A DNA stretch of 64,000 bases from Lachnospiraceae bacterium (GCA_017463255.1 JAFTPP010000015.1:8803-72802); one strand, 5' to 3'. Shown: positions 18,218 to 63,799, counted from the first letter of the stretch. The notes: generated by a model from the letters alone, not told the origin. A program made the numbers and translations.

Positions 18218-18934
18218 ATGTTAAAGATTAGTCATTTGACCAAAAAATATGGCGATAAGAAGGCGGTAGATGACCTTTCACTGGAAATTGGAGCCGGTGA
18301 GATTTATGCATTTATCGGTCATAACGGCGCCGGTAAAACAACTACGATAAAAGCATGTTGCGGTCTTTTGAATTTTGATGAAGGAGACATTTGGATTGAC
18401 GGTATTCCGGTAAAAGAAAAGCCGTTGGAATGTAAGCAAATGTTAGCATATATTCCGGACAATCCGGACTTATATGATTTTATGTCCGGTATTAAATATT
18501 TGAATTTTGTAGCAGATGTTTTTGGGGTATCGAAAGAGGACAGGGAAAAGAGAATTGCAGAGTATGCAGATACCTTCGGCTTGACCGAGGATCTTGCGCA
18601 GCCCATTAGTGCATATTCTCATGGTATGAAGCAAAAGCTTGCCATTATCAGTGCGTTGATACATACCCCTAAATTGATTATTATGGATGAACCATTTGTG
18701 GGACTTGACCCGAAAGCGGCACATTCTCTTAAATTGATTATGAGAAATATATGTGACAATGGCGGAGCTATATTCTTTTCTACCCATGTGTTGGAAGTGG
18801 CAGAAAAGTTATGTGACAAGGTTGCTATTATCAAAGAAGGTAAGCTTGTGGTATCAGGCGGAATGGATGAAGTAAAAGGCGACTCCTCTCTTGAGAGTGT
18901 ATTCTTGGAATTGGAGGGAGAACAGGATGCTTAA
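18218..18934 (+). CDS. ABC transporter ATP-binding protein
   Basis: Walker A GHNGAGKTT, signature SHGMKQKL, Walker B LIIMDEP. Confidence 0.9.
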   Translation: MLKISHLTKKYGDKKAVDDLSLEIGAGEIYAFIGHNGAGKTTTIKACCGLLNFDEGDIWIDGIPVKEKPLECKQMLAYIPDNPDLYDFMSGIKYLNFVADVFGVSKEDREKRIAEYADTFGLTEDLAQPISAYSHGMKQKLAIISALIHTPKLIIMDEPFVGLDPKAAHSLKLIMRNICDNGGAIFFSTHVLEVAEKLCDKVAIIKEGKLVVSGGMDEVKGDSSLESVFLELEGEQDA

Positions 18935-20543: not shown

Positions 20544-20575
20544 TTGTATAGGAAACGGATTGAAAGGATGTTAGG

Positions 20576-38290: not shown

Positions 38291-39211
38291 ATGATTAACA
38301 AACTTGTAGCAAAGATTAAAAAAACGGAAGCACCAATTGTTGTGGGTTTAGATCCTACACTTAAGTTTATTCCGGAACACATTTTGAAAAAAGCGTATGC
38401 GGAATACGGAGAAACATTGAAAGCAGTTGGAGAAGCTGTATGGCAGTATAACAAAGGAATTATTGATAATACATATGATTTGATTCCGGCAGTAAAACCT
38501 CAGATTGCTATGTATGAGCAGTTTGGTATTGAAGGATTAATCGCATATCAGAAAACAGTAGAATACTGTAAGGAAAAAGATTTGGTAGTAATCGGTGACA
38601 TTAAGCGTGGTGATATTGGCTCTACATCAACAGCTTATGCAATCGGACATCTTGGTAAAGTGAAAGTAGGAAGCAACGAATACAGAGGCTTTGATACTGA
38701 TTTTGTAACCGTGAATCCATATCTTGGTTCTGACGGAGTAAATCCGTTTATCGATGTATGTAAGGAAGAGAAAAAGGGTATTTTTGTTCTGGTTAAGACT
38801 TCTAATCCAAGTAGTGGAGAGTTCCAGGACCGTATTATTGATGGCAAACCCTTATATGAATGGGTTGGTGAGAAGGTTGATGAATGGGGCAAACAGTGCA
38901 TGGGTGATGATTACAGCTATGTAGGTGCCGTAGTTGGAGCAACCTATCCTGAAATGGGTAAGGTTTTAAGAAAAGTAATGCCAAAATCGTACATCCTTGT
39001 ACCGGGCTATGGTGCACAGGGCGGAACCGGAAAAGATTTGGTTCACTTCTTTAACGAAGACGGCCTTGGAGCAATTGTTAACTCATCACGAGGCATTATT
39101 GCTGCGTACCAGCAGGAAAAATACGCAAAATACGGAGCTTTAAATTATGCGGATGCTTCAAGGGCAGCAGTTGTTGATATGATTGATGACTTGAAGAATG
39201 CTTTAAAGTAA
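38291..39211 (+). CDS. pyrF: orotidine 5'-phosphate decarboxylase (long, type 2)
   Basis: VGLDP, VKPQIAMYE, VIGDIKRGDIGST motifs. Confidence 0.88.
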   Translation: MINKLVAKIKKTEAPIVVGLDPTLKFIPEHILKKAYAEYGETLKAVGEAVWQYNKGIIDNTYDLIPAVKPQIAMYEQFGIEGLIAYQKTVEYCKEKDLVVIGDIKRGDIGSTSTAYAIGHLGKVKVGSNEYRGFDTDFVTVNPYLGSDGVNPFIDVCKEEKKGIFVLVKTSNPSSGEFQDRIIDGKPLYEWVGEKVDEWGKQCMGDDYSYVGAVVGATYPEMGKVLRKVMPKSYILVPGYGAQGGTGKDLVHFFNEDGLGAIVNSSRGIIAAYQQEKYAKYGALNYADASRAAVVDMIDDLKNALK

Positions 39212-48767: not shown

Positions 48768-48833
48768 TTTTTTGATAAAATGAATAAAAAGAAGTATGAT
48801 CATCAGAATATCAGTAGATGGAAGGTGAAGATA

Positions 48834-50171
48834 ATGTTTAAAAGAAAAGTATACGAAGAATTACTGGCATGGAAAAAAGAATGGGACGGAAAATATGCAT
48901 GTTTGCTTGAAGGGGCAAGACGTGTAGGAAAGACAACTATCGCAGAGGAATTTGCCCGAAATGAATATGATTCTTATATACTGATTGATTTTTCGAATGC
49001 CAGTAAGGAAATGCTGGATATATTTGAAGACATTTCTAAGCTTGACCGTTTCTTTTTAAGATTGCAGATGGAAGCCGGTGTAGAACTTTATGAAAGAAAA
49101 TCAGTAATTATATTTGATGAGATTCAGTTGTTTCCAAAGGCGAGGCAGGCAATCAAACATCTTGTGAAGGATGGCAGATATGATTATATTGAAACCGGTT
49201 CTTTGATATCTATAAAGAAAAATGTAAAGAATATATTGATTCCGTCTGAAGAGCATAAAATTCATGTGTATCCAATGGATTATGAGGAGTTTTTATGGGC
49301 TACGGGAGGAAATCCCAATGTTCTGGATATGGCGTATAAGAGCAATATGGAACTTGGCAACGCTGCGAATCGTAATGCCATGAGAGATTTTCGGATTTAT
49401 ATGGCTGTGGGAGGAATGCCCCAGGCAGTAGAATGCTATATTTCCACAAATAGTTTTGAGTCTGTGGATAAAGTGAAGCGCGAAATACTGGAACTGTATT
49501 ATGATGATCTGAAAAAGATTGATGCATCAGGCAGAATAACAGATATGTATAAATCTGTTCCTTGCCAGCTTGCAGCAAAGAAGAAACATTATGCGATTAC
49601 TACAGCTACCGGAAAACAAAAAACAAGAAAAGATGAGGAACGTCTTTTTGAATTAATTGAATCAGGACTGGTATTACCTTGTTATAATGTGTTAAATCCA
49701 AGTGTTTCATTAGCACAGACAAAGGATATGAACTGTTTTAAGCTGTATTTGTCAGATATAGGTCTTTTTACTACGATGCTTTTTAATGATGCGCAAAATG
49801 GCGTAGAAGACATTTATAAGAAATTGTTGAGTGATACATTAACGGCAGATTTAGGATATTTGTACGAAAATGTAGTGGCGCAAGCGATAAAGGCCAGTGG
49901 AAGAGATTTGTATTATCACACATGGAGAAAAGAGGGAAGCACGCATTCATTTGAAATAGATTTCCTTATCACTTCCAAGAATAAGGTGGTACCAATAGAA
50001 GTAAAATCTGCGGCAATCAATAATCATAAATCAATTGACAACTTTGAAGTCAAATATTCAAAGCAGGTGGGAGAACGTTTCCTTTTGTCTCAAAAAGATG
50101 TGGGAAAAAACGGTTCATTGAAATTGAAACCGATATATATGATTTTGTTTTTACTAAAAGACTTGCAATAA
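48834..50171 (+). CDS. AAA-family ATPase with C-terminal DUF4143-type domain
   Basis: Walker A GARRVGKTT and Walker B IIFDEIQ. The C-terminal half resembles the DUF4143 architecture. Confidence 0.75.
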   Translation: MFKRKVYEELLAWKKEWDGKYACLLEGARRVGKTTIAEEFARNEYDSYILIDFSNASKEMLDIFEDISKLDRFFLRLQMEAGVELYERKSVIIFDEIQLFPKARQAIKHLVKDGRYDYIETGSLISIKKNVKNILIPSEEHKIHVYPMDYEEFLWATGGNPNVLDMAYKSNMELGNAANRNAMRDFRIYMAVGGMPQAVECYISTNSFESVDKVKREILELYYDDLKKIDASGRITDMYKSVPCQLAAKKKHYAITTATGKQKTRKDEERLFELIESGLVLPCYNVLNPSVSLAQTKDMNCFKLYLSDIGLFTTMLFNDAQNGVEDIYKKLLSDTLTADLGYLYENVVAQAIKASGRDLYYHTWRKEGSTHSFEIDFLITSKNKVVPIEVKSAAINNHKSIDNFEVKYSKQVGERFLLSQKDVGKNGSLKLKPIYMILFLLKDLQ

Positions 50172-50279
50172 CTGATGGAGAAAGTACGCAAGATAATACG
50201 CAAGATGACAATTCCTGACAAGCCAAATAGTAGAAACCAGAGATATGTAAAAGAGTAAAATTGGCAGGTGCATGGGGTT

Positions 50280-50315
50280 TTTCGAAAGTATAAAAATTTT
50301 AAAGTTTCGAAAGTG
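50280..50315 (+). promoter_or_regulatory. 36-nt element with two TTTCGAAA palindromic boxes 25 nt apart (third copy of the 61.5-kb repeat)
   Basis: tttcgaaagtataaaaattttaaagtttcgaaagtg is 31/36 identical to 61582-61617. It overlaps a putative -35, with TATACT at 50328-50333. Confidence 0.55.
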
Positions 50316-50364
50316 GCAGGAAATGCCGTATACTATATGTAGAGAATTAAGTGGAGGTGGTATC

Positions 50365-50724
50365 ATGGAAGTAAGAGAATTACGTTTACAAACAGGATTA
50401 AGCCAGAGTAAATTTGCTAAAATGTTTGATGTTCCGGTTTCTACTTTGAAAGACTGGGAACAGGAAAGAAGAAATCCTCCGGCATACGTTGTTAATATGA
50501 TGAGAACTATTTTGCAATATAAGGGGATGCTTATGAGCCAAAGTTATGTGGAAGCATGTGAAGCGAGAAGAAAGAGCGTGGAAAATGCTATGGCTATTAT
50601 GCTAAGTGCTACAAATGGTCCGGATGAATTGTTTTTAGAGGTTTTGAATTCCTATATTCTTGGGGAAATAACACTGGAAGAAATGGAAGATAGAATTGAA
50701 CGATTTGAGTATTTGGGAGCGTAA
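50365..50724 (+). CDS. XRE-type HTH protein fused to a VbhA-like (Fic antitoxin) C-terminal domain
   Basis: HTH LRLQTGLSQSKFAKMFDVPVSTLKDWEQ. The C-terminal ...NAMAIMLSATNGPDE...ILGEITLEEMEDRIERF resembles VbhA-family antitoxins in length and spacing. GGAGGTGG RBS. Stop lies 3 nt before the Fic ATG. Confidence 0.65.
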   Translation: MEVRELRLQTGLSQSKFAKMFDVPVSTLKDWEQERRNPPAYVVNMMRTILQYKGMLMSQSYVEACEARRKSVENAMAIMLSATNGPDELFLEVLNSYILGEITLEEMEDRIERFEYLGA

Positions 50725-50727
50725 TAT

Positions 50728-51437
50728 ATGAGTGGTGGAAAGAATTGTTACCCGGAAAGTGATGTCCTTATTAATAAATATAACATTCGCGAAAAGGAAC
50801 TTTTGGAAAAGTTTGAAATACAGAAAGTATTTGCAAAACTGTTAGGCTTGGATGTGAAGCCGACAAGGATTGCCTATACTTATGATGTGGGCACATGGTA
50901 AACGTTCATAAGTATTTGTTCGGGGATATTTATGAATGGGCAGGAACATTCCGAAAAGAGAATTTGTACAAGAGTGAGCGTGTTTTGTCCGGTGGTTTTG
51001 CAGAGTATGCGGACTACCATGAGATTGAGACGCGATTAGAAAGGTTGCTGCAAGAACACGCAAACATTGATTGGAGAAAGAATGCGAAGTGTGGAGAGGT
51101 AGTTTCGGATTTTTTGTTGGAATTATGGACTATCCATCCTTTTAGAGAAGGAAATACCAGAACCTGTATCACATTTCTGTGGCATTATTTAAAGGGTAAA
51201 GGTGTAGAGTTTCAAGTGGCTTTACTTAGGAATAACCCAATGTATGTGAGAGATGCGTTGGTTATGGCAAATTATGACCAGAAAGAGTACTTGAGACGGA
51301 TTATAGCAGATGCATTACAGGGAGAAACACAGGAGTCTGAATATTTAATGAATGAGGAGCAGGCAGGAGAGCAATATAAAATTGCGCAAGCAGATTATGA
51401 AGCGTTTAGAGAAAAGTATTCGATAAAGAAGGACTAA
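50728..51437 (+). pseudogene. Fic/DOC family protein, split by a -1 frameshift at a GGG run (50889-50891)
   Basis: Frame 1 reads MSGGKNCYPESDVLINKYNI...TYDVGTW*, stopping at 50899-50901. Frame 0 continues ...HMVNVHKYLFGDIYEWAGTFR...HPFREGNTRT. Adding one G gives a continuous 236-aa Fic-like ORF. Confidence 0.8.
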
Positions 51438-51541
51438 TGAATGAAGATAGTTTCTGCTATCTTTCCTCATTGAAAAACAACAGAATCTATGATAGGATGT
51501 TTTAGAGAAATGAAGCGATATAAAGCGCAGGAGGATATACA

Positions 51542-51586
51542 ATGGAAGCATACAAGCAGGAATTTATAGAATTTATGCCTGCCTGA
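51542..51586 (+). pseudogene. 14-codon fragment resembling the 5' end of orotate phosphoribosyltransferase (pyrE), with intact RBS
   Basis: AGGAGGA at 51529-51535, then ATG...MEAYKQEFIEFMPA*. YKQEFIEF matches the conserved PyrE N-terminus (E. coli MKPYQRQFIEFAL). Recognised from memory only. Confidence 0.5.
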
Positions 51587-51849
51587 TTTTCAGACTTCCT
51601 GAAATGCCGAAAAACCCAGTGCTTTCAAGGGTTTGCGGACTTTTGCCAAAAAGACAGATGTATCATATTTTATCGCAAATTGGTGTAATTTCACACCGAA
51701 ATGGTGTAGTAGATTGTAGCTGGTTTGGGGACGGAGACGTCAAATATCATAAAGAAAAAAGTGTAGAGACCCATGTGCTTGCCGGGAGGCGGGCGCATGG
51801 GTTTTTAGCTAGATTATATCTTGATTAGAACCATTTAACGTAATTTGAA

Positions 51850-51878
51850 TTGAGAAAGAAGAGTTTGTTTGATATAAT
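51850..51878 (+). promoter_or_regulatory. promoter-like sequence upstream of the NB-ARC/TPR gene
   Basis: TTGAGA at 51850-51855, 17-nt spacer, then TG-extended TATAAT at 51873-51878. Confidence 0.45.
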
Positions 51879-51986
51879 TTTTTATATTCTACAAATCACC
51901 AATGAAATTGTGGCTTGAGGAAATGAAACATTATCTAAGAAAGAAAACAAAGGATTGAAATGAAATATTGGAAAGGAGATACGGTC

Positions 51987-54900
51987 ATGTCATTAAAATC
52001 AACATTTTTAAAAGCTGCGATAAATATTTCTATTGCACTAGCCTTTCCGGAAGCAGTAATATTCCAGGGATTGTCAAGTGCTTCATTGGATTTTTTGGCA
52101 GATTGTTATGAGGATAAAAAAGAGAAGAAATCTAATGATATTACTTATAAACTTACGAAATTATATGAAAAATATTTTTCAGAGGCGTATTTGAAGGAAA
52201 ATGGTATTAATTATAAGAAGGTAGAATATTACAAAAGTCAGATTTTGGATGTTCTTGAGTATTCGAAAACAAGCGTTTCGCTTTTGGCGGAATGTAATAA
52301 TGATGCAGTGGCTCTGTGTGATTATATGATTTCGATATATAGAGATAATTGTTTGCATGGTATATTGGAAGATGAGGCGGATATTCGTAAGATATGTATA
52401 TTAATTCTTACGGAGATGATTGAGATTATTTGTTCTGAGCCAAGTTTTCTTTTAGATGGAATATTAGAATTATACCCACGTGTAATTCAAAATGAAAATG
52501 AAATAAGCGAATTAAAGAGATGTGTGGAGTTATTACAACATAAAATACTTCAGGAAGAGCCATTAGTTCCTAAATTTATAACTAATCCCCCATATGCTTT
52601 GGTACGTCATTTCATTGGAAGAGAGAGAAACGTTGAAGAAGCTTTTGAAGCTCTTGTAAATGACCATGCTGTTTTAATGTATGGTATTGGTGGAATTGGT
52701 AAGACTGAGATTGCAAAGCAGGTGATCAATTTAATTATGAATGTGCCTTGTGATAAACATGGTATTGAGCAGATTGCCTGGATAGATTATGACAATAAAG
52801 ATATTCAGACATGCATTGCAAGGTGTATTCTTGCAACTAGCCAAATTACAGATAAGAATGAGGCTTGGATGCATGCATTAAGGATAATTTTAGATGAGGG
52901 AAAGAGATTACTTTTGGTTATAGATAATGTTGAGCGGCTTGATGATGAAAATTTGTTGAGACTTACACAATTACCATGTAAAATTTTACTCACAAGTCGT
53001 GTAAGAGAATTAGCTAACTTTTCTATACTTGAAGTAGAACATTTATCAAAAGCAGAATGCATTACCCTTTTTCAAAAGTATTATACAAAACAGCCAGATA
53101 CTCGGAGAACAATAGAAGAAATTGTTGACTTGGCAGATTATCATACGGTGACAGTAGAACTGTTGGCGAAAATAGCTAATTTAGAAGAATGTTCTCTAAT
53201 GAAATTTTTAGAACGATTAAGGTTGCTAGGTTTTAAACTGAGTGACGAGGAGGTAACAGCAAATCATGAAAAACTTCATAGAGAAGAAAAGATTATACAA
53301 CAGCTTTCAAAATTGTTTTCTATTGTGCATCTTACAAAAGAGGAAGCTTCTTTGATAGTACCTGTATCGGTTATTCCATCCATGGCTTTCTCATACACAA
53401 ATGCAAAGGAGTGGTTTGGTCAGAAAAATCATAAAAACTTAGAGCGTTTAGTAAATACGGGGTGGCTGCAGGATGCTTCAAAGGATGGGGTAAAATATTA
53501 TATGATTCATTCCGTTATTGCCTCGGCTATCCGTTTCCAGTATCAAGAAGTATTATACGAAAAATGTAGAGATTTCATGGTGATACTTACAAAGGAAATG
53601 CAATATCCAAATGATGAACATGGAGCGAGTAAAAAGTATCTTATACAATTTTGCTGGTCAATCAATGACTTGCTTGGGGATCATATGGAAGAAGAGCTGG
53701 ATGCAGATTTTCTTTTGTATTTATCCAGAATTTATTGTGATGTTGCTAATTTTGAACAGGCATTTCAGATACTCCGACGTTGTGTTCGTATCTATAAAAG
53801 AAATGAGGAGTATATTGTAAAATTAATCAGTTGTTATAATCAAATAGGCATCGTATATAAAGGGCAGGATAAAAATAAATATGCATTAACGCAGTATGCT
53901 AAAGCGTTCAAATTGGCAAATAATTATCCTATAGAAGGTGCTCTTTGGGTTACTTTGCTTACCGATGCCGCTTTAGTATTTCTTAAAACAGATGGAGAAA
54001 TGCTTGGAGGATTTGCAGATTGCTATTTTAGAGAGGCTTACAATATTGCTCTTCAAGTATATGGAAATGGTCATTCAGAAACGCGAAAGATTAAAACCTT
54101 ATGGAATCATTGTATTGCGTCTTATGATCCAGAATCTGCAAATCAAAAATTCCTTGATATTATTCAAGAAGAGGAGCAGATATATTCAGAGAATAGTATG
54201 CAATTAGCTGAGACATATGCATCATATGCTATTTTTCTTTACGAAATGGGCGAGTATTCACAGGCTTTAGTTTATATTAATAAAGCCTATAATATTAAGA
54301 ATGTTGTTTTAGGAGAGGAACATCCAGAAACAACAGATTTACGTAATTATCGCGGGTTAATTTTGGAATACATGGGTAGTCGTGATGAAGCAAGGGAGGA
54401 ATTTGAAGTTTGTTTAGAAATTGCCCAAAAAATAGATGGTGAAGAAAGTACGACAGCGGCAGTGGCTTATAATAACTTGGCACTATTTTATTTTGATAGT
54501 GAAGAGTATTCCGCAGCTTTGGAATATTTTAAAATGGCAGAACATATTTATAGGAAATTTCAGAGGTTATATAATGAGGATTTCGTGCAAGGGTTAGCAA
54601 CGGCACTTCGAAATGAAGGGCAGTGTTATAGCGAATTAGCTGATAAAGAGGGTGAAAATTTTATTGTGGCTACTGACAATGCTATAGAAAAATTTAAAGA
54701 AGCTATTAGCATTCTGAATAGTGATTTTATTCGTTATAAATTTGATATTGCACAGGTATACGGAGCACTTGCTTCCACTTATGCACGAAAAGGTTGGAAA
54801 AGAGATGCAGAGTTTAGTTTCAAAAGAGCAATTAAAGATACTATTGATAGTAAGAATGAAACGCATCCGGGATTAGCATATTTATACAATAACTATGCCA

Positions 54901-55064
54901 TGTTTTTAGATGCCATTGATAGGAAAGAAGAAGCACTAGAACATCTTATTAAAGCAGAACAGATACTAGTTGTTAATGGTGTGACTTCGGATAATAATAA
55001 TTTGCGTATCGTTAGGGGAGCTATAATTGCGATTAAGAATAATTTGCAGAAATCCACAGATTGA
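51987..55064 (+). CDS. STAND NTPase: unknown ~215-aa helical N-terminal domain, NB-ARC-like P-loop ATPase, C-terminal TPR array
   Basis: Walker A GIGGIGKTEIAK, Walker B LLLVIDNVE and ILLTSR (NB-ARC-like). The C-terminal repeats are of the kinesin-light-chain TPR type (LA..Y...G.Y..AL....A..I). ATG at 51987 has AGGAGA 7 nt upstream; ATG at 51960 is also possible. Confidence 0.8.
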   Translation: MSLKSTFLKAAINISIALAFPEAVIFQGLSSASLDFLADCYEDKKEKKSNDITYKLTKLYEKYFSEAYLKENGINYKKVEYYKSQILDVLEYSKTSVSLLAECNNDAVALCDYMISIYRDNCLHGILEDEADIRKICILILTEMIEIICSEPSFLLDGILELYPRVIQNENEISELKRCVELLQHKILQEEPLVPKFITNPPYALVRHFIGRERNVEEAFEALVNDHAVLMYGIGGIGKTEIAKQVINLIMNVPCDKHGIEQIAWIDYDNKDIQTCIARCILATSQITDKNEAWMHALRIILDEGKRLLLVIDNVERLDDENLLRLTQLPCKILLTSRVRELANFSILEVEHLSKAECITLFQKYYTKQPDTRRTIEEIVDLADYHTVTVELLAKIANLEECSLMKFLERLRLLGFKLSDEEVTANHEKLHREEKIIQQLSKLFSIVHLTKEEASLIVPVSVIPSMAFSYTNAKEWFGQKNHKNLERLVNTGWLQDASKDGVKYYMIHSVIASAIRFQYQEVLYEKCRDFMVILTKEMQYPNDEHGASKKYLIQFCWSINDLLGDHMEEELDADFLLYLSRIYCDVANFEQAFQILRRCVRIYKRNEEYIVKLISCYNQIGIVYKGQDKNKYALTQYAKAFKLANNYPIEGALWVTLLTDAALVFLKTDGEMLGGFADCYFREAYNIALQVYGNGHSETRKIKTLWNHCIASYDPESANQKFLDIIQEEEQIYSENSMQLAETYASYAIFLYEMGEYSQALVYINKAYNIKNVVLGEEHPETTDLRNYRGLILEYMGSRDEAREEFEVCLEIAQKIDGEESTTAAVAYNNLALFYFDSEEYSAALEYFKMAEHIYRKFQRLYNEDFVQGLATALRNEGQCYSELADKEGENFIVATDNAIEKFKEAISILNSDFIRYKFDIAQVYGALASTYARKGWKRDAEFSFKRAIKDTIDSKNETHPGLAYLYNNYAMFLDAIDRKEEALEHLIKAEQILVVNGVTSDNNNLRIVRGAIIAIKNNLQKSTD

Positions 55065-55348: not shown

Positions 55349-55423
55349 ATCGTATATTATCATTATCTTATCCACCACACAAAAATGATAGGAAGATAAG
55401 TTGGATAATATACGATTTTTTTT
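55349..55423. terminator. long imperfect hairpin plus T8 run between the STAND gene region and the recombinase 3' end
   Basis: atcgtatattatc ... gataatatacgat arms (55349-55361 / 55404-55416) with inner cttatc/gataag pairing, then tttttttt. Confidence 0.6.
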
Positions 55424-56342
55424 ATATATGAAAATCTTTTCTAGGATGTTTAGAGGTAAGAATATCTCTTTGTTTGGACATTGCAACATGTGTATATATT
55501 TCTGTAATGTTTATGGAGCTATGACCTAACATTTCTTGAATGTAACGTATATTAACATCAGCTTCTAAAAGGCAGGTTGCAAAAGTATGCCGAAACATGT
55601 GTGGTGTGATGTGTAGTTCTATTGCGGCAAGTGAAGTGTATTTGTTAATCATTCTTCGAACTGCTTGATCAGACAGTGGTCTGCCGGATTGATTCACAAA
55701 GAAACAATTGCATGCTTGAATTTCATTTACGAAGTCTTCCTTATATTCTTGTAAAATTGTAATCACGTCATCATTTCCTATTTGAATTTTTCGCTCTTTT
55801 GAACCTTTTCCATAGATTAAAATTGTTTTCTCGTACAGATTGACATCAAATGGTTTTAGAGAACATAATTCGGTGACTCGAATACCGGTTGCAAATAGAA
55901 GTTCAATTATGGTAGCGTCTCTTAAGGCATTTCGCTTTTGGAATGTAGTAGGAGCAGTAGTACGTTGAGTGTAAATTGTGGATAAAAATGTTTCTACTAT
56001 GTACAAGGGTATCGTTTTAGGTAGAATGGCAGGCTCGCGAAACTTTATTTGAATCCGATTAAATGGATTTCTTTCAATTATTTCTTTGTATTCAAGATAG
56101 CGAAAAAATGCTTTTGTAGACGCTAGCTTTCTTTTTACAGTTTTAGGTTTGTATGTTTGATGGAGTTCTGCTATATATTGTTCAATTATATCAGGGGTGA
56201 TTCGGGTTATTTCAGTTGTTGGAATGTCTGAACAAAACTGTTTCAAATCTATTTGGTATGCTTTTAGGGTTTTTGAATCAAGACGTTTTTGTTCTTGGCA
56301 GTAAATGAGGTAATTATTGATTTGATTTTGTAAACTATTCAT
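55422..56342 (-). CDS. site-specific tyrosine recombinase, XerC/XerD-like (306 aa, no arm-binding domain)
   Basis: SAM-like N-domain (KTLKAYQIDLKQF). Catalytic motifs ATGIRVTELCSL (Arg), HMFRHTFAT (HxxR) and LGHSSINITEIYTHV (Tyr). Confidence 0.88.
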   Translation of the reverse strand: MNSLQNQINNYLIYCQEQKRLDSKTLKAYQIDLKQFCSDIPTTEITRITPDIIEQYIAELHQTYKPKTVKRKLASTKAFFRYLEYKEIIERNPFNRIQIKFREPAILPKTIPLYIVETFLSTIYTQRTTAPTTFQKRNALRDATIIELLFATGIRVTELCSLKPFDVNLYEKTILIYGKGSKERKIQIGNDDVITILQEYKEDFVNEIQACNCFFVNQSGRPLSDQAVRRMINKYTSLAAIELHITPHMFRHTFATCLLEADVNIRYIQEMLGHSSINITEIYTHVAMSKQRDILTSKHPRKDFHI

Positions 56343-56433
56343 GTTGATTTCTCCTTGTGTGCATCTATAAGTATTTTGGTTACATATTAATATAACACAG
56401 CTGGAAATAGATGATATAATGTAGTAAAATAAA

Positions 56434-56463
56434 TGAAGGATAATCGTTTGTTATCCGTTAAAT
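56434..56463 (+). repeat. left copy of perfect 30-nt inverted repeat (TGAAGGATAATCGTTTGTTATCCGTTAAAT) with internal dyad GGATAA-N7-TTATCC
   Basis: Read directly. Exact reverse complement at 61114-61143. Lies 23 nt upstream of the STAND ATG (56487) and 91 nt from the recombinase start codon. Confidence 0.9.
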
Positions 56464-56486
56464 ATATAAAATATTAGGAGAAACAA

Positions 56487-58880
56487 ATGGGATTTTACAA
56501 AGAAGAAAAAGTGCAAAATATAGATAGGGTATTTTTAGATAGAGAGGATATTTTAAAAAAAATAGAAGAAAATGTACTTTCATATAAAGACAATGAAAGA
56601 TTCTACAAACTATTCTCATTCTATGGCATGGGTGGAATAGGAAAAAGTCGATTAGTTAGTCAGATTTATGATACATATAATGGTACAGATTTAACATTAT
56701 ATAAATTTCATTTAGAAATATTGAATCACGAAACAATACCTTCTATTTTATTACATATCAGAAGAGAGTTTTCGTATACTCCTCATTTTGACTACGTTCT
56801 GCTTAGATATTGGGATTTTATTAATTATGACAGGGCTAACAAAGAGATCTTTGAAAATGTCATAAGTAAATCTATTAGATTAATAAGTAGTACAGTCGGT
56901 AATCTTCTATTATCTGGCTGCTGTAACCTGGAGAACATTGTTAAAATAATATTAGAGGAATACGAGGAGAGAGAAATTAATAGCGACGAAATAGATGATG
57001 TTACCAAATTGCTACAGGGGAAAATTGAAGATTTGCATTATTATATGTCTAAAACCCTAGCACAAGACATTGAAAAAGAAATTAAAGAATTAAAACATCT
57101 TTTCATATTTGACGCATATAATCGGGATAGAACTTCTAGAAAATATGACTGGCTAAAATATTTTATTAATAATTTTGAGAACGGAATGTTTATTGTCACT
57201 TCAAGAGAACCGTTAGAATGGTTTGAACAATGCAAAGTAGATACGTCTGTGGTGGAAAATATTCCTATAGATTCTATTCCGCAAGATGTTGTACGAGAGT
57301 ATTTGTTAGAACAAAAGTATAGTAATAATCAAATTAATTTGATTATTGAGAAAACTGATTGTATTCCATTGTACTTAGACATAGCATTAAGAATTTCAGA
57401 AAAAGGCTTCGGTAATGAGACGTTTGTAGGATTTTATGATAAAAAAGATTTAGTAAAACATTTGCTTAGCCATTTATCATCGGACGAACAAATTATTATA
57501 GAATATTTAGCAGTAGTTAGGTTATTTAACGAAGAAATATATAATAATGCATTAGAATTTAATAAACTATCATATTTAAATCATTCTTTTTCTAAATTTA
57601 AAGAATGTACTATTTTGCGTTATGTTGAAGAATTTAATGGATTATATAAGATACATTCTATCTTAGCAAATAATATTTCTGTTCTGATGGAGAAACGTTT
57701 ACGTCATAAAATAATAGAAGACTATATTAACTTCATTTGGGCAAGAATCACCACTAGTGAATTATTATATAATGATATAAAATATAACTTCGTTTTGAAC
57801 GTTTACATTTTAGTAGAAAAGGAACACATATCTGTGGATAAGGATATTTCAGAAAAACTGCTAGATATGTATTTCTATTTAGTTGATAAAAGTTATGAAA
57901 TGGAATTTATTAACCGTGTTATTTCTTTGGAAAACGAAGAACAGAGCCCATTAAAGTATATTTATCAATATTTTAAAGGGAATACGGAGAGATTAAGTAA
58001 TATTAAAAAAGGACTACGAAGTTTAGAAAGTATTCCAATTTCTGAATGTAATTTTGGAAAGCATATAAACTCTCTACAATGTGACATTAACTATTTATTG
58101 TCCATATCTGGTAAATATAATGAAGCAGAAGAAAAGATGGATGAATTTGTAAAAAAATTAAAAGAAAGTGACGTTGGTGAACGTTATTATCTAAAAGGCA
58201 TTATTTATGATTGTGACATGAAAATGTTACGCGGAAAATTCAATTCATCTATTGAAGGATTATTACTTTTAATAAACCAAGAGACAAATCAGAACCTTTT
58301 ATTTGAAATTAACAAAGCGATTGGACACAGCTATCGATTTAATTTTCTTTTAGATAAGGCGATTGAACAGTATTCAATATGTGGCATAGATAAGAATTTA
58401 GACTATTATCTTACTGTATATTGTGAAACAAATTGTTACTTTAATCCAAAAAAAGTGTTTAAATATTATAACCACGCAATAGAAGAAAATAGAAAACATA
58501 ACAACCATAATAATCTTGGAAAAATATATTATTCGATGGCAATTGCAAAAATTGTTAAAACAGAATATTTGTCAGCAGAAAAATATATAAAAAAGGCATA
58601 CACTGAGTTTAAGGGCACAAAATATCAAGCGGGAAATTTATTTGTTTTAATTGCAGAAGCCTATTTAGAATATGGCAAATTTAGAAGAATATCGTCTAAG
58701 ACAATTAAGAAAATTACTGAATATGTAGATGGTATAAATGGAATATACGAATATCTTCTCTTGCCACTATATGTAGCAAGAAAAGATATTAACAAAGTAA
58801 ATGAATTCAAAGAAAAGTTTGAATGGATTTCATATAATGAAACTATTGAAAATATAAATACATTTATTAATCAACTATAA
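56487..58880 (+). CDS. STAND-type P-loop ATPase without N-terminal effector domain, C-terminal helical/TPR-like repeats
   Basis: Walker A at residue ~47 (YGMGGIGKSRLV), Walker B HLFIFDAYN, MFIVTSREP. Long AT-rich helical C-terminal region with TPR-like segments. Confidence 0.75.
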   Translation: MGFYKEEKVQNIDRVFLDREDILKKIEENVLSYKDNERFYKLFSFYGMGGIGKSRLVSQIYDTYNGTDLTLYKFHLEILNHETIPSILLHIRREFSYTPHFDYVLLRYWDFINYDRANKEIFENVISKSIRLISSTVGNLLLSGCCNLENIVKIILEEYEEREINSDEIDDVTKLLQGKIEDLHYYMSKTLAQDIEKEIKELKHLFIFDAYNRDRTSRKYDWLKYFINNFENGMFIVTSREPLEWFEQCKVDTSVVENIPIDSIPQDVVREYLLEQKYSNNQINLIIEKTDCIPLYLDIALRISEKGFGNETFVGFYDKKDLVKHLLSHLSSDEQIIIEYLAVVRLFNEEIYNNALEFNKLSYLNHSFSKFKECTILRYVEEFNGLYKIHSILANNISVLMEKRLRHKIIEDYINFIWARITTSELLYNDIKYNFVLNVYILVEKEHISVDKDISEKLLDMYFYLVDKSYEMEFINRVISLENEEQSPLKYIYQYFKGNTERLSNIKKGLRSLESIPISECNFGKHINSLQCDINYLLSISGKYNEAEEKMDEFVKKLKESDVGERYYLKGIIYDCDMKMLRGKFNSSIEGLLLLINQETNQNLLFEINKAIGHSYRFNFLLDKAIEQYSICGIDKNLDYYLTVYCETNCYFNPKKVFKYYNHAIEENRKHNNHNNLGKIYYSMAIAKIVKTEYLSAEKYIKKAYTEFKGTKYQAGNLFVLIAEAYLEYGKFRRISSKTIKKITEYVDGINGIYEYLLLPLYVARKDINKVNEFKEKFEWISYNETIENINTFINQL

Positions 58881-59862
58881 ATTGTATAATCTGTTTTGGC
58901 TGGCAGCATTTGTTCTTTTCAGCAAAAGGAATATTTATATCATTGGTTTCATATATTTGAAATAATACATCATAATCTGATATCCAATTATTTCTTATAT
59001 ACTTTTCAGCAACTTTTAAGTTTGTTTTTGAACCGTTACGTAAAGGAAAGTAGACCATACTTTCCTTTTTTACTAATGCCTCATATATTCCAGATGTTTC
59101 TTGACCATAAAGGTGACTAAACGAACATAGAGATTGATTATAAGCAGATTTATGGATGCATTCTAATAAACCATCGGAACTATTAGTTGCTTCTATTATT
59201 AAATCATATTCTATGTTGGGTTTAGCTTCTTTACATAAAAATAAATTTACAATATTAGTTCGTTTAGCTTCATTTATGTCATATATATATACGTTTTTTT
59301 TTATACAACAACTTAAATAGAATGTACACAACATTCCTATATTTCCTGTTCCATACACTAGAATGGAATTGAGTTTTGTTATATCATAATGATTCATTGC
59401 GTGTATTATACAAGATAGTGGTTCGATACATGTTGCCCTATAAATATACTGTGATGAAATATTAGTCTTTACCAAATAACTATAGTGTATATCTGCATAT
59501 ATAGAAAAGGCTCGATTGGTAAATAACGCAATATCATTGTCTTTACATAAATGGCTCTTATTTTGATTACAGTATTCACATTCCATGCATCTATAATTAA
59601 AATCTGAAACAACAAAATCTCCAATGTCGTAATCTAAGCAAACATCGCAATTATAATCTAAGACTTCTGCAACAAATTCATGGCCTAACGAAACTGGATA
59701 ATTTTTTCTATATCCTAAAAACTGAGAATAGTCGCCTCCACATATTCCACAGTATAGATATTTAACACGTACATAATTGAGAGGTATCTCATTGGGTAGA
59801 TTAGTAGATACATTAACAAAATTATGTGCGTTTTTAAGATATGAAACAATATTTTTAGGCAT
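58867..59862 (-). CDS. zinc-dependent medium-chain dehydrogenase/reductase (threonine/sorbitol dehydrogenase-like)
   Basis: CGICGGD, GHEF, structural Zn lobe CMECEYCNQNKSHLC, Rossmann GTGNIG. Start ATG overlaps the upstream gene by 8 nt, with an AAAGGAG RBS. Confidence 0.8.
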   Translation of the reverse strand: MPKNIVSYLKNAHNFVNVSTNLPNEIPLNYVRVKYLYCGICGGDYSQFLGYRKNYPVSLGHEFVAEVLDYNCDVCLDYDIGDFVVSDFNYRCMECEYCNQNKSHLCKDNDIALFTNRAFSIYADIHYSYLVKTNISSQYIYRATCIEPLSCIIHAMNHYDITKLNSILVYGTGNIGMLCTFYLSCCIKKNVYIYDINEAKRTNIVNLFLCKEAKPNIEYDLIIEATNSSDGLLECIHKSAYNQSLCSFSHLYGQETSGIYEALVKKESMVYFPLRNGSKTNLKVAEKYIRNNWISDYDVLFQIYETNDINIPFAEKNKCCQPKQIIQFIVD

Positions 59863-61096
59863 TATCGACTCCTTTAATTTCTATAATAAATTGCTCTATT
59901 TCCTTATGTAACGAAGAACTATATTCTATTTCATAATACGAAGTTGCGAGTAAAGATGCAAGTTTAGGAATATCATTTTCGCATAATCCACACACGGTAG
60001 CTGCTGATAAGCCTAGACGAATACCATAGCCTAAATCATAAGGAAGTAATCTATAATTTGTTAAAAATCCGTATTTCCCCCAACGCTTATATAATTCAAA
60101 TGCGTCTTTTTTATCTGCACACTGAATCCAAATATGATGGGTATGCGTTTCTGATGGATACAATTCACATTGTTGTACAACATTCAATCCATGTCGTATC
60201 AATTCTTTTTTTAATAATTCCGTATTTATTAACATTTGGGTCGATAATGTTTTATATGTCTCAAACTTATCTAACATTAATCCTAAAGAGTAGATTGCGT
60301 ATGGATGCATATTTGAGACATAAGTTCCAATATTTGAATAGATTTTCTCCCACATAGCATCTTTTTCTTTTGAACAATATAATGCACGTTGAGGTCCGGG
60401 GAAATTTTTATGTGTGGTAGATAAAATTGCATCAAATCCCATATCAAATGGAGAAACATAATCGCCTGCTAATATATTCGTTAGATACTGAGACGCATCA
60501 TAAATTTTATAAATTTCTTTATATTCCGATAGCCATGAAAAATCTTCGTAAATCATTCCCTCGCTTCTATCAATAAAAATAACCTTAGGGTTTACTCGTT
60601 CTATTAGTTGCTTGCTTTTCATAACATCGATGCGTTTATTACTGTAATCAATTTCCAACTCATATACATTTAGCCCTAATCGTTCTAGAATAGTTTTTGT
60701 TGCCATGTGCCCACCAGCCTTTTCTGGCAAAATAATAACAGTATCGTTGATGCTTGTAATGGACATGAAAACCGTTGTATGTGCGTGTAATCCTGAAAAA
60801 AAGCGCATAGATATAGTTTTTGCATTTAAAATTTCACACCATGAGTTATAAATTTTATCAATATCGTAGGCAATTACATCTCGATTGGCAAACTGGATTT
60901 TTGTATTTAATTGTTGCTCGCTCGAACGCATTTTATCACTGTTATAGATCCCATATATAAAACCAGTTCCTAATTCTATGCATTCTAAATCTGGAACATT
61001 TTCTACAGGATTCAATATTAATTGCTTTTTGGAAAGCTCTTCTTGCTGTTTTAATCCATTTTTAAGTGACTCTACAAGTTTGGTATATTTCCCCAT
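59855..61096 (-). CDS. serine hydroxymethyltransferase-fold PLP-dependent enzyme (divergent GlyA-like)
   Basis: LSTTHKNFPGPQRA matches the SHMT PLP-lysine motif (TTTHKTLRGPR). LNPVEN resembles the SHMT N-terminal LI(A/P)SEN. Start at MGKYTKL, with AAAGGGGA upstream. Confidence 0.7.
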   Translation of the reverse strand: MGKYTKLVESLKNGLKQQEELSKKQLILNPVENVPDLECIELGTGFIYGIYNSDKMRSSEQQLNTKIQFANRDVIAYDIDKIYNSWCEILNAKTISMRFFSGLHAHTTVFMSITSINDTVIILPEKAGGHMATKTILERLGLNVYELEIDYSNKRIDVMKSKQLIERVNPKVIFIDRSEGMIYEDFSWLSEYKEIYKIYDASQYLTNILAGDYVSPFDMGFDAILSTTHKNFPGPQRALYCSKEKDAMWEKIYSNIGTYVSNMHPYAIYSLGLMLDKFETYKTLSTQMLINTELLKKELIRHGLNVVQQCELYPSETHTHHIWIQCADKKDAFELYKRWGKYGFLTNYRLLPYDLGYGIRLGLSAATVCGLCENDIPKLASLLATSYYEIEYSSSLHKEIEQFIIEIKGVDNA

Positions 61097-61113
61097 TTCT
61101 TGTTCCCCTTTCA

Positions 61114-61143
61114 ATTTAACGGATAACAAACGATTATCCTTCA
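61114..61143 (-). repeat. right copy (reverse complement) of the perfect 30-nt inverted repeat
   Basis: The plus strand reads atttaacggataacaaacgattatccttca. Lies 17 nt upstream of the SHMT-like ATG on the minus strand. Confidence 0.9.
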
Positions 61144-61288
61144 GAAACGTAGATTTTAGAGAAATGGAAAAAGTTATATTAATGAGAAGATAATATAAAA
61201 AATTGGAGAAATATCTGCTTCACCAATTATACTTGTGAGAGCCATTTCCTTATAAGGAAAAAAATTATGGTGAGGTAAATAAGAGATC

Positions 61289-61516
61289 ATGGAGGAGGTA
61301 TTCAAAGAAGCGCAATTATGCAAAATGATTGGCGAGGATGATGCTTTAGAAATGCCGATAGATGCGAGATATATTAACGCAGACAATATTGTTACGTTAA
61401 TCTCATATGATTTTATGAAATGGAGACCTACATTTGAAAAAGTAGTTGAATTGATAGAGGTGCGAGGACTACCACTTTTTTACCAACAACCATTTGTTGC
61501 ACTTTCAAAACAATAA
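61289..61516 (+). CDS. hypothetical small protein (75 aa)
   Basis: ORF only. Weak RBS (GGTGAGG 12 nt upstream). No motif recognised. Its 3' end overlaps the first 36-nt repeat. Confidence 0.3.
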   Translation: MEEVFKEAQLCKMIGEDDALEMPIDARYINADNIVTLISYDFMKWRPTFEKVVELIEVRGLPLFYQQPFVALSKQ

Positions 61517-61617
61517 AAAAATTAAAGTTTTGAAAGTGAACTGTTGAATAAGTTATATATAAGGTGTTATAATACAATTGGTTTCAAAACAATAAAAAAA
61601 TTAAAGTTTCGAAAGTG
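61503..61617 (+). promoter_or_regulatory. two 36-nt direct repeats (35/36 identical, 79-nt period) flanking a strong promoter-like sequence upstream of the second DUF4143 ATPase
   Basis: Copies at 61503-61538 and 61582-61617 (tttcaaaacaataaaaaaattaaagttt[t/c]gaaagtg). Between them: TTGAAT at 61544-61549, 18-nt spacer, TG-extended TATAAT at 61568-61573. Confidence 0.7.
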
Positions 61618-61625: not shown

Positions 61626-62825
61626 ATGAAGACGATTGTAAGAGAAAGATATTTTGAAAGAATTAAAGCATTAAAGGATACTCCTGATATAAAGATTATT
61701 ACTGGTATCAGACGTTCTGGGAAATCTAATTTGATGCAGGCATATATTAATTATTTAAGAAAAGAGTTTGAAGATGTCAATATTATCTTTATTGACTTTA
61801 TGGATTTGGAATTTGAAGAAATAAAGGAATATCACGCTTTGCACAAGTATGTGGAAGATAGATACAATAAGGAAAAGCAGAATTATCTATTTGTGGACGA
61901 AGTACAGTTATGTCCAAATTTTGAGTTGGCAATCAATAGCCTATATTCAAAAAATAAATATGATATCTATATAACCGGTTCAAATGCTTTTTTGCTTAGC
62001 GCTGATTTGGCAACTCTATTCACTGGGAGATATATTGAAATTCATATGTTCCCATTCAGTTTTAGGGAGTATTGTGAATATTATAGTGACCAAGCTGACA
62101 AGGACAAATTGTTCGAAGAATATTTTGTCAAGGGTGGTTTGGCAGGTTCATATGCATACAACACTGACTTGGATAGAACTACTTATATCAAAGAAGTGTA
62201 CGAAACTATTGTAAATAGAGATTTAGTACAAAAATATAATTTGCCTGATACGCAGGTGCTCCGTCAGTTAAGTGAGTTTCTGATGGATAATATAAGCAAT
62301 TTAACTTCTCCGAATAGGGTAAGTGATATTTTGACCGCTAATGAAGTACCGACAAATCATGTGACAATAGGAAAATATATCAAGTATTTATGTAATGCAT
62401 TTATATTTTATGATATTAAGAGATACGACATACGAGGCAAGAAATATTTAGAAACCTCGGATAAGTTTTATATGTGTGATACCGGAATGCGTTATGCAAT
62501 ATTGGGTAGTCGAAACATGGATTATGGACGTGTATATGAAAATATTGTATGCGTAGAGCTTCTGCGTAGGGGATATGAAGTTTATGTTGGAAAACTCTAT
62601 CAAAAAGAAATTGATTTCGTTGCACAACGTGGTAGTGAGAAAATATATATTCAGGTAAGCGATAATATATCTAATCAGGAAACTTTTGAGAGAGAATATT
62701 CTCCGTTGCTGCAAATAAAGGATGCCTATCCAAAGATGATTATAGCAAGGACGAAACATCCTAAATACACATATGAGGGAATTGAAGTGTACGATATCGC
62801 TGATTGGTTACTAAATACTGTCTAA
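61626..62825 (+). CDS. AAA-family ATPase with C-terminal DUF4143-type domain (second copy)
   Basis: Walker A GIRRSGKSNLM and Walker B LFVDEVQ. Same architecture as 48834-50171. Confidence 0.75.
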   Translation: MKTIVRERYFERIKALKDTPDIKIITGIRRSGKSNLMQAYINYLRKEFEDVNIIFIDFMDLEFEEIKEYHALHKYVEDRYNKEKQNYLFVDEVQLCPNFELAINSLYSKNKYDIYITGSNAFLLSADLATLFTGRYIEIHMFPFSFREYCEYYSDQADKDKLFEEYFVKGGLAGSYAYNTDLDRTTYIKEVYETIVNRDLVQKYNLPDTQVLRQLSEFLMDNISNLTSPNRVSDILTANEVPTNHVTIGKYIKYLCNAFIFYDIKRYDIRGKKYLETSDKFYMCDTGMRYAILGSRNMDYGRVYENIVCVELLRRGYEVYVGKLYQKEIDFVAQRGSEKIYIQVSDNISNQETFEREYSPLLQIKDAYPKMIIARTKHPKYTYEGIEVYDIADWLLNTV

Positions 62826-62839
62826 AGAAAGGAATGTGT

Positions 62840-63799
62840 ATGGATACAAATAGTAAGGAGTATGCTCTTAAAAACATTTATAATGATTTTATAAAAGAAT
62901 TAGAAATTGTAAACAGATTTTATCAAATAACTATCGGTTCGTATGGATTGTTCTCAATTATGTCAGAGTCATCCGTCGAATTTAAAAGAGACAAAATTAA
63001 AGATCAAATAGCAGGAAATAAGAAACGTTCATATTCACCTGCGGATAGTGAGGTGGAGACTCCGATTTTGCTATGTGAATGGGTAAGTATGGAGGAGTAT
63101 GCAGATAGAGAACATGTGAGTATGGATGAGTTGGTTTTACAAGGAAACGCGGGAGAACTAGGCGAGATAGTAGAAGATAATGGGATCAAATATATTATAT
63201 GGCCATCTCAATATCAATTTAGTGATAAAAAACCTCAATTCAGAAAAAAACTTTTTAAAGTACCGGTAAAGCAAGAAATGGGGGTCGAAATTGATGTGTC
63301 TAGTCAAGAAGATTTGCTGGGACTTTTAAAATTTCAATATGGGAATCCAGATAAAGCAACTTATGCGGCAACAAAAGTGCTAAACAGAGAAACGTTTCTG
63401 CTATATTGGTCAGCGTTTGAACAATATATAAAGCAAATTGCTATAGCGCTATTTGAAATATATCCGGAGGAAGTTTTTAAAAACAAGAAATATGGAAAAG
63501 AAAATATGAGTTACATGGATATTTATATTAAATCGAATCATTTTACGGATATTCAAGAACTGCGCCTACACATTTTAGATATGATTATTGGAAGTGTTGG
63601 GCAGGCGAATCGTGATTCGATTAGTAAAACAATACAGTTCATAAAAGATTGCTTTATTGATGGTAAAGATAATCCGTATGAAACATGGTATGTATTCGAA
63701 GGTGAAAAAATTAGGACATCATATGTTGCAGTTGATGAAATAAGACGTATAAGAAATGTTCTGGTACATGAGAATGGGATAGCGGGGGGGATGAGATAA
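62840..63799 (+). CDS. hypothetical protein with C-terminal HEPN-like Rx4H motif; the reading frame ends just after a G7 tract and may continue to 63939 in the +1 frame
   Basis: EIRRIRNVLVHENG (RNVLVH = Rx4H). G7 at 63784-63790. One extra G extends the ORF by ~50 aa (GDEIRENSLVNETEDGRIVVTKEMLEKVMLIIKSVSYNLYNCVLRKIKEK*). Confidence 0.6.
   Translation: MDTNSKEYALKNIYNDFIKELEIVNRFYQITIGSYGLFSIMSESSVEFKRDKIKDQIAGNKKRSYSPADSEVETPILLCEWVSMEEYADREHVSMDELVLQGNAGELGEIVEDNGIKYIIWPSQYQFSDKKPQFRKKLFKVPVKQEMGVEIDVSSQEDLLGLLKFQYGNPDKATYAATKVLNRETFLLYWSAFEQYIKQIAIALFEIYPEEVFKNKKYGKENMSYMDIYIKSNHFTDIQELRLHILDMIIGSVGQANRDSISKTIQFIKDCFIDGKDNPYETWYVFEGEKIRTSYVAVDEIRRIRNVLVHENGIAGGMR

Follow-up and report, generated by a model that had tools for sequence, protein, structure and literature searches.

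In a 64,000-nucleotide stretch of DNA from Lachnospiraceae bacterium (GCA_017463255.1 JAFTPP010000015.1:8803-72802; hereafter the window, with positions counted from its first letter), a 4650-nt segment at 56464-61113 inverts at the repeats that bracket it, as is shown by natural variation in two lineages together with conservation across a whole family of loci. The segment holds two convergent units, apparently without promoters of their own: a gene for a STAND-type P-loop NTPase and an enzyme operon headed by a serine hydroxymethyltransferase (SHMT)-like gene. Next to it lies a gene for an Xer-like tyrosine recombinase. With a probability of about 0.68, we read this arrangement as a programmed and reversible inversion by which the recombinase would change which fixed promoter outside the segment serves the NTPase and which serves the enzyme operon.

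The two inverted repeats, IR-L (56434-56463, plus strand, TGAAGGATAATCGTTTGTTATCCGTTAAAT) and IR-R (61114-61143, minus strand), are exact reverse complements over 30 of 30 positions, as a preliminary description of this DNA had stated. They are the only two copies of the 30-mer in the 64 kb with up to 3 mismatches allowed, and the number expected in dinucleotide shuffles of the window is 0.00. The dyad GGATAA-N7-TTATCC, which the same description had read in each copy, occurs twice in the window, both times in these repeats, and the relaxed core RATAAY-N5-RTTATY is also confined to them. The predicted core recombination site inside IR-L is GATAAT-CGTTT-GTTATC (56439-56455), and the GTTAAAT at the end of the repeat recalls the XerD arm of Escherichia coli dif. 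Both copies are located in 5' leaders and have the same orientation relative to their downstream gene: IR-L ends 23 nt before the ATG of the STAND gene (56487) and IR-R 17 nt before the ATG of the SHMT-like gene (61096, minus strand), distances that agree with those originally given.

Contigs from nature carry the segment in both orientations. Public contigs encoding identical proteins were retrieved, and each copy of the 30-mer was classed by its outside flank (LO for the recombinase side, RO for the distal side) and its inside flank (STAND or SHMT). The window orientation, LO-IR-STAND, is found in L001/L007 (one contig), L004, L009/L015 (one contig), L010 and L014, and the inverted orientation, LO-IR-SHMT, in L003, L005 and L006, the second of which continues for 1.3 kb of SHMT beyond the repeat. 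The reciprocal junction, RO-IR-STAND, is present in L016, a 4735-nt contig that reads RO-IR-STAND...SHMT-IR and comes from the same sample as L003. Since the assembly k exceeded the 30-nt repeat (55, inferred from contig ends at the repeat plus 25 nt, and 141, taken from contig names in which 'k141' indicates MEGAHIT), these junctions were spanned by reads and are not artefacts of repeat collapse. Several contigs from three samples end exactly at the repeat or 25 nt past it, which suggests a graph fork caused by orientations coexisting in a sample; contig breaks at the repeat were seen in SAMN15829952, SAMN15829955 and SAMN15829957. The earlier proposal that recombination between the copies flips 56464-61113 is thus supported by contigs in both orientations and by the reciprocal junction. 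In JGI metagenome contigs, an exact 29-mer of the repeat found no match.

The junction between flank and repeat has a further property. Where the left outside flank meets the repeat, an ATG is created (window 56433-56477; L005 1240-1305, minus strand). In the window orientation, it opens a 14-codon upstream open reading frame (MKDNRLLSVKYIKY, then a stop codon) that ends in the Shine-Dalgarno sequence of the STAND gene. In the inverted orientation, it is in frame with the SHMT-like open reading frame (ORF) and adds 16 N-terminal residues, which accounts for the SHMT-like protein being called as 413, 424 or 429 aa.

The same behavior is seen in a second lineage, represented by P0079, a GNAT-SHMT fusion protein found in 170 blocks of the collection, of which 10 places were examined. 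Contigs spanning both junctions exist here in each of two states. In state one (L073, L075 and L074), the order is recombinase, site, GNAT-SHMT and alcohol dehydrogenase (ADH)-like genes, then the convergent STAND gene, the second site and a gene of 210 aa; in state two (L072, L076 and L077), the cassette is reversed between the same flanks. Two more contigs (L078 and L079) have the reversed cassette and reach their end at one of the two sites. The exchange is confined to a 19-nt identical core, AAAGGATAATACTGGATTA, with the outer flanks fixed and the inner sequences swapped. A stretch of 19 identical bases offers homologous recombination very little sequence to act on and so favors a site-specific mechanism. 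In both lineages, therefore, the two orientations occur in nature with breakpoints at the repeats. In the P0079 lineage, the recombinase gene points in the same direction as the cassette and ends with a stop codon located within the core site (L073), so read-through into the cassette would be expected; the distal flank has a near-consensus TTGAAA-17-TATAAT that ends 8 nt before the repeat. In addition, this lineage (L070-L079) adjoins genes for a TraC/TraG-like P-loop protein, NLPC_P60 and DUF5697/DUF6100, a predicted gene content that is typical of a Firmicutes conjugative element.

The recombinase gene of the window (55422-56342, minus strand) is divergent from the cassette, and its start codon lies 91 nt from the left repeat. 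Its 306-aa product, introduced as Xer-like in the preliminary description, bears that name out: it matches Phage_integrase (2.3e-41) and Phage_int_SAM_1 in Pfam, and its alignment with E. coli XerD (1a0p) covers the whole protein. The XerD catalytic motifs, as read from this alignment, are matched (ATGIR, GKGSKER, HMFRH, LGHS and IYTH), and the protein has both the catalytic residues and the SAM-like domain that characterize the tyrosine recombinase superfamily. Among NCBIfam models, XerC gives 236 bits (cut-off 335) and XerD 229 bits (cut-off 330), while FimB/E-type models reach 63 and 48 bits only. XerC or XerD proper was rejected as an identity because the scores are under both equivalog cut-offs, which makes the protein an Xer-like paralogue and not an orthologue. 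Another ORF of 306 aa at 38291-39211 was considered as a second recombinase and is unrelated to the first. No resolvase/invertase-type gene was found among the ORFs of the flanking regions, all long ones of which were scanned against Pfam. Between the recombinase gene and a neighboring NB-ARC/TPR gene, and overlapping the recombinase stop codon, there is an AT-rich hairpin (55349-55424) with perfect arms of 12-13 nt (TCGTATATTATC ... GATAATATACGA) followed by a T run; it holds GATAA/TTATC motifs resembling half-sites and is probably a terminator overlooked by the G+C-based scan.

Inside the segment, the STAND-type NTPase gene (56487-58880, plus strand) encodes 797 aa, with a weak NB-ARC match at residues 21-68 and a Walker A motif, GMGGIGKS, at residue 47. 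An AlphaFold2 model (mean pLDDT, the per-residue confidence score, 83) consists of a P-loop core and a C-terminal TPR-like helical array, and the best fold match in the PDB is 6mfv, a STAND protein with TPR (E 2e-9); the protein thus combines the NB-ARC-like core, the helical region and the repeat domain expected of a STAND NTPase. No effector domain was detected in it by the Pfam scan or by the AlphaFold2 model and fold search. The window-type STAND family comprises 213 clusters at 50% identity (E<=1e-30), and the complete members among the 150 matches listed are nearly all ~800-835 aa long.

The enzyme unit runs in the opposite direction. Its first gene (59855-61096, minus strand), with a Shine-Dalgarno-like AGGGGA upstream of the ATG at 61096, encodes a 413-aa SHMT-like enzyme of the pyridoxal phosphate (PLP)-dependent type (Pfam SHMT 2.5e-10). 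NCBIfam gives 113 bits for SHMT (cut-off 335) and 84 bits for fluorothreonine transaldolase, and profile matches in the PDB include an archaeal SHMT (4uqv) and 7k34, deposited as 'threonine aldolase', which we take to be the L-threonine transaldolase ObiH. The protein has an invariant HKNxPGPQ motif with the PLP-lysine Lys230, and by these matches it classifies as a divergent paralogue in the SHMT/threonine-aldolase-like fold family. The second gene (58867-59862, minus strand) encodes a 331-aa Zn-dependent alcohol/threonine-dehydrogenase-like protein (Pfam ADH_N 1.1e-12) with weak NCBIfam matches to L-threonine 3-dehydrogenase, all under cut-off. The 3' end of this gene overlaps that of the STAND gene by 14 nt, and no terminator-like site was found between the STAND gene and the enzyme unit. 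The ORFs of both units are complete inside the segment and the repeats are outside coding sequence. None of the recombinase, STAND, ADH-like and SHMT-like proteins has a match among PADLOC-DB v2 models.

To place the window in a wider context, the SHMT-like protein, which has 1046 homologues at E<=1e-5, was used in a genome scan with one genome per species, and 52 loci were obtained. The closest belongs to a metagenome-assembled genome (MAG) of Acetatifactor sp. (92% identity), which suggests that the window comes from an Acetatifactor-like gut bacterium, and the whole set spans Firmicutes, Actinobacteria, Acidobacteria, Proteobacteria and other phyla, with hosts such as Lachnospiraceae, Acutalibacteraceae, Solirubrobacterales, Acidimicrobiales, Acidobacteriota, Cloacimonadota, Chitinophagales, Pseudoalteromonas and an Acholeplasmataceae genome, among others. 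An inverted RATAAY-N5-RTTATY pair surrounds the SHMT-like gene in 30 of the 52 loci, in addition to the window, and most of the other 22 are interrupted by contig ends. In the 30 loci, the cores are 3.96-5.4 kb apart, with three exceptions of 6.3-7.3 kb, and within each pair one spacer is the reverse complement of the other. Five contigs start and end at the core or at most 2 nt away and two more start there (the contigs bounded at the core are L022, L029, L033, L047, L052, L060 and also L080). The alignment of sites gives the consensus (A/T)AAG-GATAAY-N5-RTTATC, with a subfamily CTTAC-AATAAC-N5-ATTATT-GTAAG, and the core dyad is kept across phyla while its surroundings diverge.

The cargo is conserved in outline as well. 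At the opposite end of the segment, all 30 pair-bearing loci encode a P-loop NTPase of 743-898 aa that is convergent with the enzyme unit; these NTPases fall into two clusters, one of the window type with Walker A near residue 47 (11 loci) and one with Walker A mostly near residues 115-153 (19 loci). The enzyme unit consists of either SHMT-like and ADH-like genes or a GNAT-SHMT fusion, and either form may come with an amidohydrolase or a methyltransferase. About 29 of the 52 loci have a recombinase homologue adjacent to the cassette, and in co-directional loci its ORF ends at the site or within a few nucleotides of it. Depending on the genome, it adjoins the NTPase (L018, L023, L024, L027, L030 and L065) or the SHMT unit (L019, L035, L048, L051, L057, L067 and L068), which indicates that genomes have been fixed or sampled in either state. 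Relatives with a single copy of the repeat, named at the outset as an observation that would speak against inversion, were looked for: relatives have site pairs, usually with the recombinase alongside. The phage collection contains no homologue of the SHMT-like protein. Among plasmids, the sole true family member is on Sulfitobacter pSpoCB-3 and the other matches are ordinary Streptomyces SHMT genes. This 131-kb conjugative plasmid (L069) has no adjacent recombinase, and in RefSeq all products of its cassette are labeled 'hypothetical protein' except a class I SAM-dependent methyltransferase.

How would inversion affect expression? Across the family, core sites lie 4-70 nt upstream of both inward-facing start codons, and in the 30 loci the first large ORF starts at a median of ~21 nt inside the core on both sides. 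Starts so near the sites leave no room for an internal promoter, so transcription must enter from outside in most loci. In actinobacterial loci, the Shine-Dalgarno sequence (AGGAA, located in the spacer) and even the start codon are part of the repeat itself. On the recombinase side of the window, a promoter-like motif (56392-56420, plus strand) reads into the cassette as ATAACA-17-(TG)a-TATAAT. The promoter-like sequence TGATATAAT noted earlier at 56412-56420 proved to be the TG-extended -10 of this motif, which ends 13 nt before the repeat, and by consensus match its score is reached by at most 1% of random windows drawn from this locus. The distal flank has a weak motif (61153-61182, minus strand; TTAATA-18-TAAAAT, 9/12 matches), also directed into the cassette, whose score does not exceed the background of the locus (p about 0.31). 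In a pooled set of 22 low-GC loci, the mean score of the better flank is 8.82 versus 8.11 for random windows (P about 0.003), and clear one-sided flank motifs are present in the window, L044, L049, L056 and L073, a pattern that favors a strong entry point on one flank and a weak or read-through one on the other. From the spacing of start codons and the one-sided motif, we infer that the arrangement would fit an asymmetric promoter swap rather than a simple ON/OFF switch.

The proposed switch would work as follows. In each repeat, the dif-like core GATAAT-CGTTT-GTTATC is most likely the binding site of the adjacent recombinase, and strand exchange inside the cores would flip the 4.65-kb segment. 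Fixed promoters in the flanks would send transcription across the repeats and into the segment, strongly from the recombinase side and weakly from the distal side, so that inversion would set which unit is strongly transcribed. Given the overlapping 3' ends and the lack of a terminator between the units, transcription of the strongly expressed unit probably continues in antisense into the opposing one, and such read-through would bring the switch closer to either/or. The outcome would be a heritable two-state toggle between NTPase-high/enzymes-low and enzymes-high/NTPase-low.

Several points weigh against this reading. Most single loci lack a convincing flank promoter and the pooled signal is modest; promoter calls are consensus matches in AT-rich DNA and show no excess over shuffles in the window region. 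In L018, the genes start 156-204 nt inside and the repeat contains TTGAAG-18-TAGAAT, so both units could be driven in either orientation. Several loci (L055, L059, L062 and L069) have no recombinase in the sequence at hand, so that there the enzyme could be supplied in trans or be one of the host's own Xer proteins. Mutually exclusive expression would also be hard to rationalize if the NTPase and the enzymes cooperate. Furthermore, Logan assembles with k=31, which breaks contigs at repeats of at least 30 nt; cassette-sized Logan contigs do not prove heterogeneity and were dropped as a sign of it. The evidence as a whole comes from assembled contigs and sequence analysis.

Other explanations can account for part of these data. 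The inverted dif-like sites could delimit a mobile or exchangeable Xer module of the pdif type, with inversion as a by-product that has no regulatory purpose. The short dyad core resembling dif and the Xer-like recombinase would suit such a module, as would a cassette with varying enzyme content that is distributed patchily across phyla and carried by both a conjugative plasmid (L069) and a conjugative element (P0079), and modules bounded by pXerC/D sites are known to invert reversibly (PMC9947245). However, a circle cannot be excised from two inverted sites, and the cassette has a dedicated paralogue fixed beside it instead of relying on host XerC/D, carries the same gene pair as cargo in every locus and keeps its sites at a precise, conserved position at start codons, which points to a role in expression. 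We therefore regard this explanation as unlikely.

The location of both copies in 5' leaders, in the same orientation to the downstream gene, raises another idea, namely that the 30-mer is a shared operator or leader-RNA element that co-regulates both units and owes its identity to binding. Its dyad could bind a dimeric regulator, and a recombinase bound just downstream of the promoter could act as a roadblock. An operator, however, does not need identity of the asymmetric spacer and flanks, nor does it explain why both segment orientations exist with the exchange at the repeat, and the motif is absent elsewhere in the 64 kb. The leader hairpins are no more stable than shuffles (z -1.7 and -0.4) and match no Rfam family, so a leader-RNA or riboswitch was rejected, and the shared operator or leader hairpin that had been offered as an alternative found no support as the primary role of the repeats; we hold it to be very improbable. 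Also very improbable is the remaining possibility, that orientation differences arose from rare RecA-dependent homologous recombination or from assembly artefacts. Thirty identical bases can support low-frequency homologous recombination, and contigs that end at the repeat, of which there are many, are also expected from repeat-induced graph breaks. Yet the junction-spanning contigs come from assemblies with k (55 and 141) greater than the repeat, the exchange in the P0079 lineage took place within 19 identical bases only, the core dyad is conserved across phyla amid diverging surroundings, and a recombinase with intact catalytic motifs is linked to the sites.

Compared with known systems, the proposed promoter-swapping cassette is closest in logic to the phage Mu G-segment type and closest in enzymology and site to Xer/dif and pdif modules. 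In the Mu G, P1 C and e14 P segments, alternative units face each other, as in the cassette, and a fixed outside promoter reads the adjacent one, as is proposed here. Gin, Cin and Pin are serine invertases with a Fis-bound enhancer, and what alternates in the Mu G type is a set of paralogous tail-fibre parts, each joined in frame to a constant region that lies beyond the segment, whereas the cassette has a tyrosine recombinase, complete and unrelated genes with their own ribosome-binding sites, and a repeat in the 5' leader. Inversion of the Gin/Hin type was excluded because the linked enzyme is a tyrosine recombinase. The fimS switch (FimB/FimE), Clostridioides difficile RecV and the invertible promoters of Bacteroides share with the cassette a tyrosine recombinase, short inverted repeats and, as proposed here, heritable and reversible expression states, but fimS-type invertons flip a promoter element of a few hundred bp in an ON/OFF manner, whereas the element that flips here measures 4.65 kb and has no evident promoter inside it, the predicted promoters being external. 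A promoter inverton of that type was rejected, as only 23 and 17 nt separate repeats and starts and the promoter-like motifs are external. Shufflons (Rci, R64) and the hsdS invertons (PsrA/CreX, Streptococcus pneumoniae) also have an adjacent tyrosine recombinase and act on coding segments. They swap domains in frame, whereas the cassette sites are upstream of starts and whole unrelated units are exchanged; with repeats in 5' leaders and both ORFs complete, there is no in-frame exchange, and this category was rejected as well.

The pdif modules of Acinetobacter plasmids, for which reversible inversion has been documented (PMC9947245), resemble the cassette in their Xer-type recombinase, dif-like core and oppositely oriented sites around a gene module. 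They use host XerC/XerD, carry assorted cargo including resistance genes and are viewed as mobile modules, whereas the cassette has a dedicated linked paralogue, one conserved cargo type and sites at translation starts. As for the cargo, the cassette STAND protein shares with Avs-type STAND/NLR-like ATPases a P-loop core followed by a C-terminal TPR-like array and a defence-like neighborhood. Unlike them, it has no detected fused effector domain and no PADLOC match, and its partners are enzymes of the SHMT-like, dehydrogenase, GNAT, amidohydrolase or methyltransferase kinds. No description of the system or the site was found in the searchable literature, which was also searched for the core sequences. 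The cassette therefore appears to be an undescribed form of programmed inversion by a tyrosine recombinase, one whose architecture, site and cargo are all new.

These features bear on how phase variation is catalogued. Most listed invertons are small promoter flips or in-frame coding swaps, whereas here whole unrelated gene units are exchanged. Pipelines for inverton detection, PhaseFinder among them, consider regions of limited size, and a segment of 4-5 kb would be missed. The switch also accounts for loci that break into cassette-sized contigs and for their annotation as 'hypothetical protein'. It brings a STAND NTPase together with chemistry of the SHMT-like, dehydrogenase, GNAT and methyltransferase types, and its occurrence extends from Lachnospiraceae of the gut to Actinobacteria of soil and Proteobacteria of the sea. 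It offers a defined recombinase and site pair (RATAAY-N5-RTTATY), and its hosts include cultured carriers, namely Schaedlerella arabinosiphila DSM 106076 (L018), Blautia schinkii DSM 10518 (L022), Anaerocolumna sp. AGMB13025 (L056), Ruminiclostridium sufflavum DSM 19573 (L059) and Pseudoalteromonas byunsanensis JCM 12483 (L039). It leads to a testable hypothesis, in which a sensor-type ATPase and a metabolic module are deployed alternately. A more far-reaching version, which we put forward tentatively and consider somewhat doubtful, is that the loci form an undescribed multi-phylum phase-variable family in which one strong promoter would drive either the STAND gene or the enzyme operon, so that clones would split and express alternate halves of a conflict or defence system. 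As part of this version, the recombination site may double as a ribosome-binding site for both units in some lineages. The idea that the cassette is a phase-variable module of the conflict or defence type is itself a guess of low confidence, prompted by the defence-like neighborhood and the patchy, mobile distribution.

Some members of the family are more complex than the window. Two cores per repeat are present in L017, L018, L024, L041 and L045; for example, the L018 repeat of Schaedlerella arabinosiphila (9770-9872 / 14769-14871) is 103 nt long and contains two different cores, and in Acutalibacteraceae the outer core is an extended palindrome, CTTACAATAAT-ACTGA-ATTATTGTAAG. The second core on each arm may serve as an accessory or additional crossover site, or else as an operator. 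Three or more sites in L055, L059 and L063 hint at a shufflon-like complexity. In L055 (Lachnospiraceae bacterium 28-4, KE159599.1), an array of same-type sites extends over 2900-21161: between the members of an inverted pair at 2925/7145, a 1020-aa P-loop protein and a GT2 glycosyltransferase are encoded convergently, an insertion sequence (DDE_3) and then a GNAT-SHMT/NTPase cassette follow, and sites at 13680, 14778 and 21105 surround a 2173-aa ORF, with scaffold gaps of N runs at several sites. L059 (Ruminiclostridium sufflavum DSM 19573, 6317-13463) has one core in direct copies at 6317 and 9496 and in an inverted copy at 13447, located just upstream of a 994-aa RTX-repeat protein, the GNAT-SHMT gene and the NTPase, respectively, which suggests a three-unit switch in which several units would share one expression site. 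The L063 recombinase (6649-7530) is situated between two different inverted site pairs (4252-6578 and 8240-13557), the former of which marks a second candidate invertible segment of 2.3 kb on the side away from the SHMT/NTPase cassette. In L025 (108-7083, a MAG contig), the SHMT-ADH unit lies between two NTPase homologues, co-directional upstream and convergent downstream, and this locus may be a duplicated or composite cassette.

The genes around the cassette in the window (48780-55064 and 61626-63799) include two AAA_14/DUF4143 ATPases, the second of which matches the PADLOC candidate PDC-S01 (E 1e-153), an HTH_3 and Fic pair, a 331-aa protein with a faint CARF-like match, and a 1034-aa protein with NB-ARC and TPR. 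The latter was considered as a paralogue of the cassette STAND protein and rejected, the two having only the P-loop in common. Two copies of a 36-nt element (TTTCAAAACAATAAAAAAATTAAAGTTT(T/C)GAAAGTG) are found at 61500-61617, in the gap separating a 75-aa ORF from the AAA_14/DUF4143 gene with its start at 61626. They are 97% identical, 79 nt apart and each internally palindromic, and may serve as a pair of operators or terminators for the AAA_14/DUF4143 gene.

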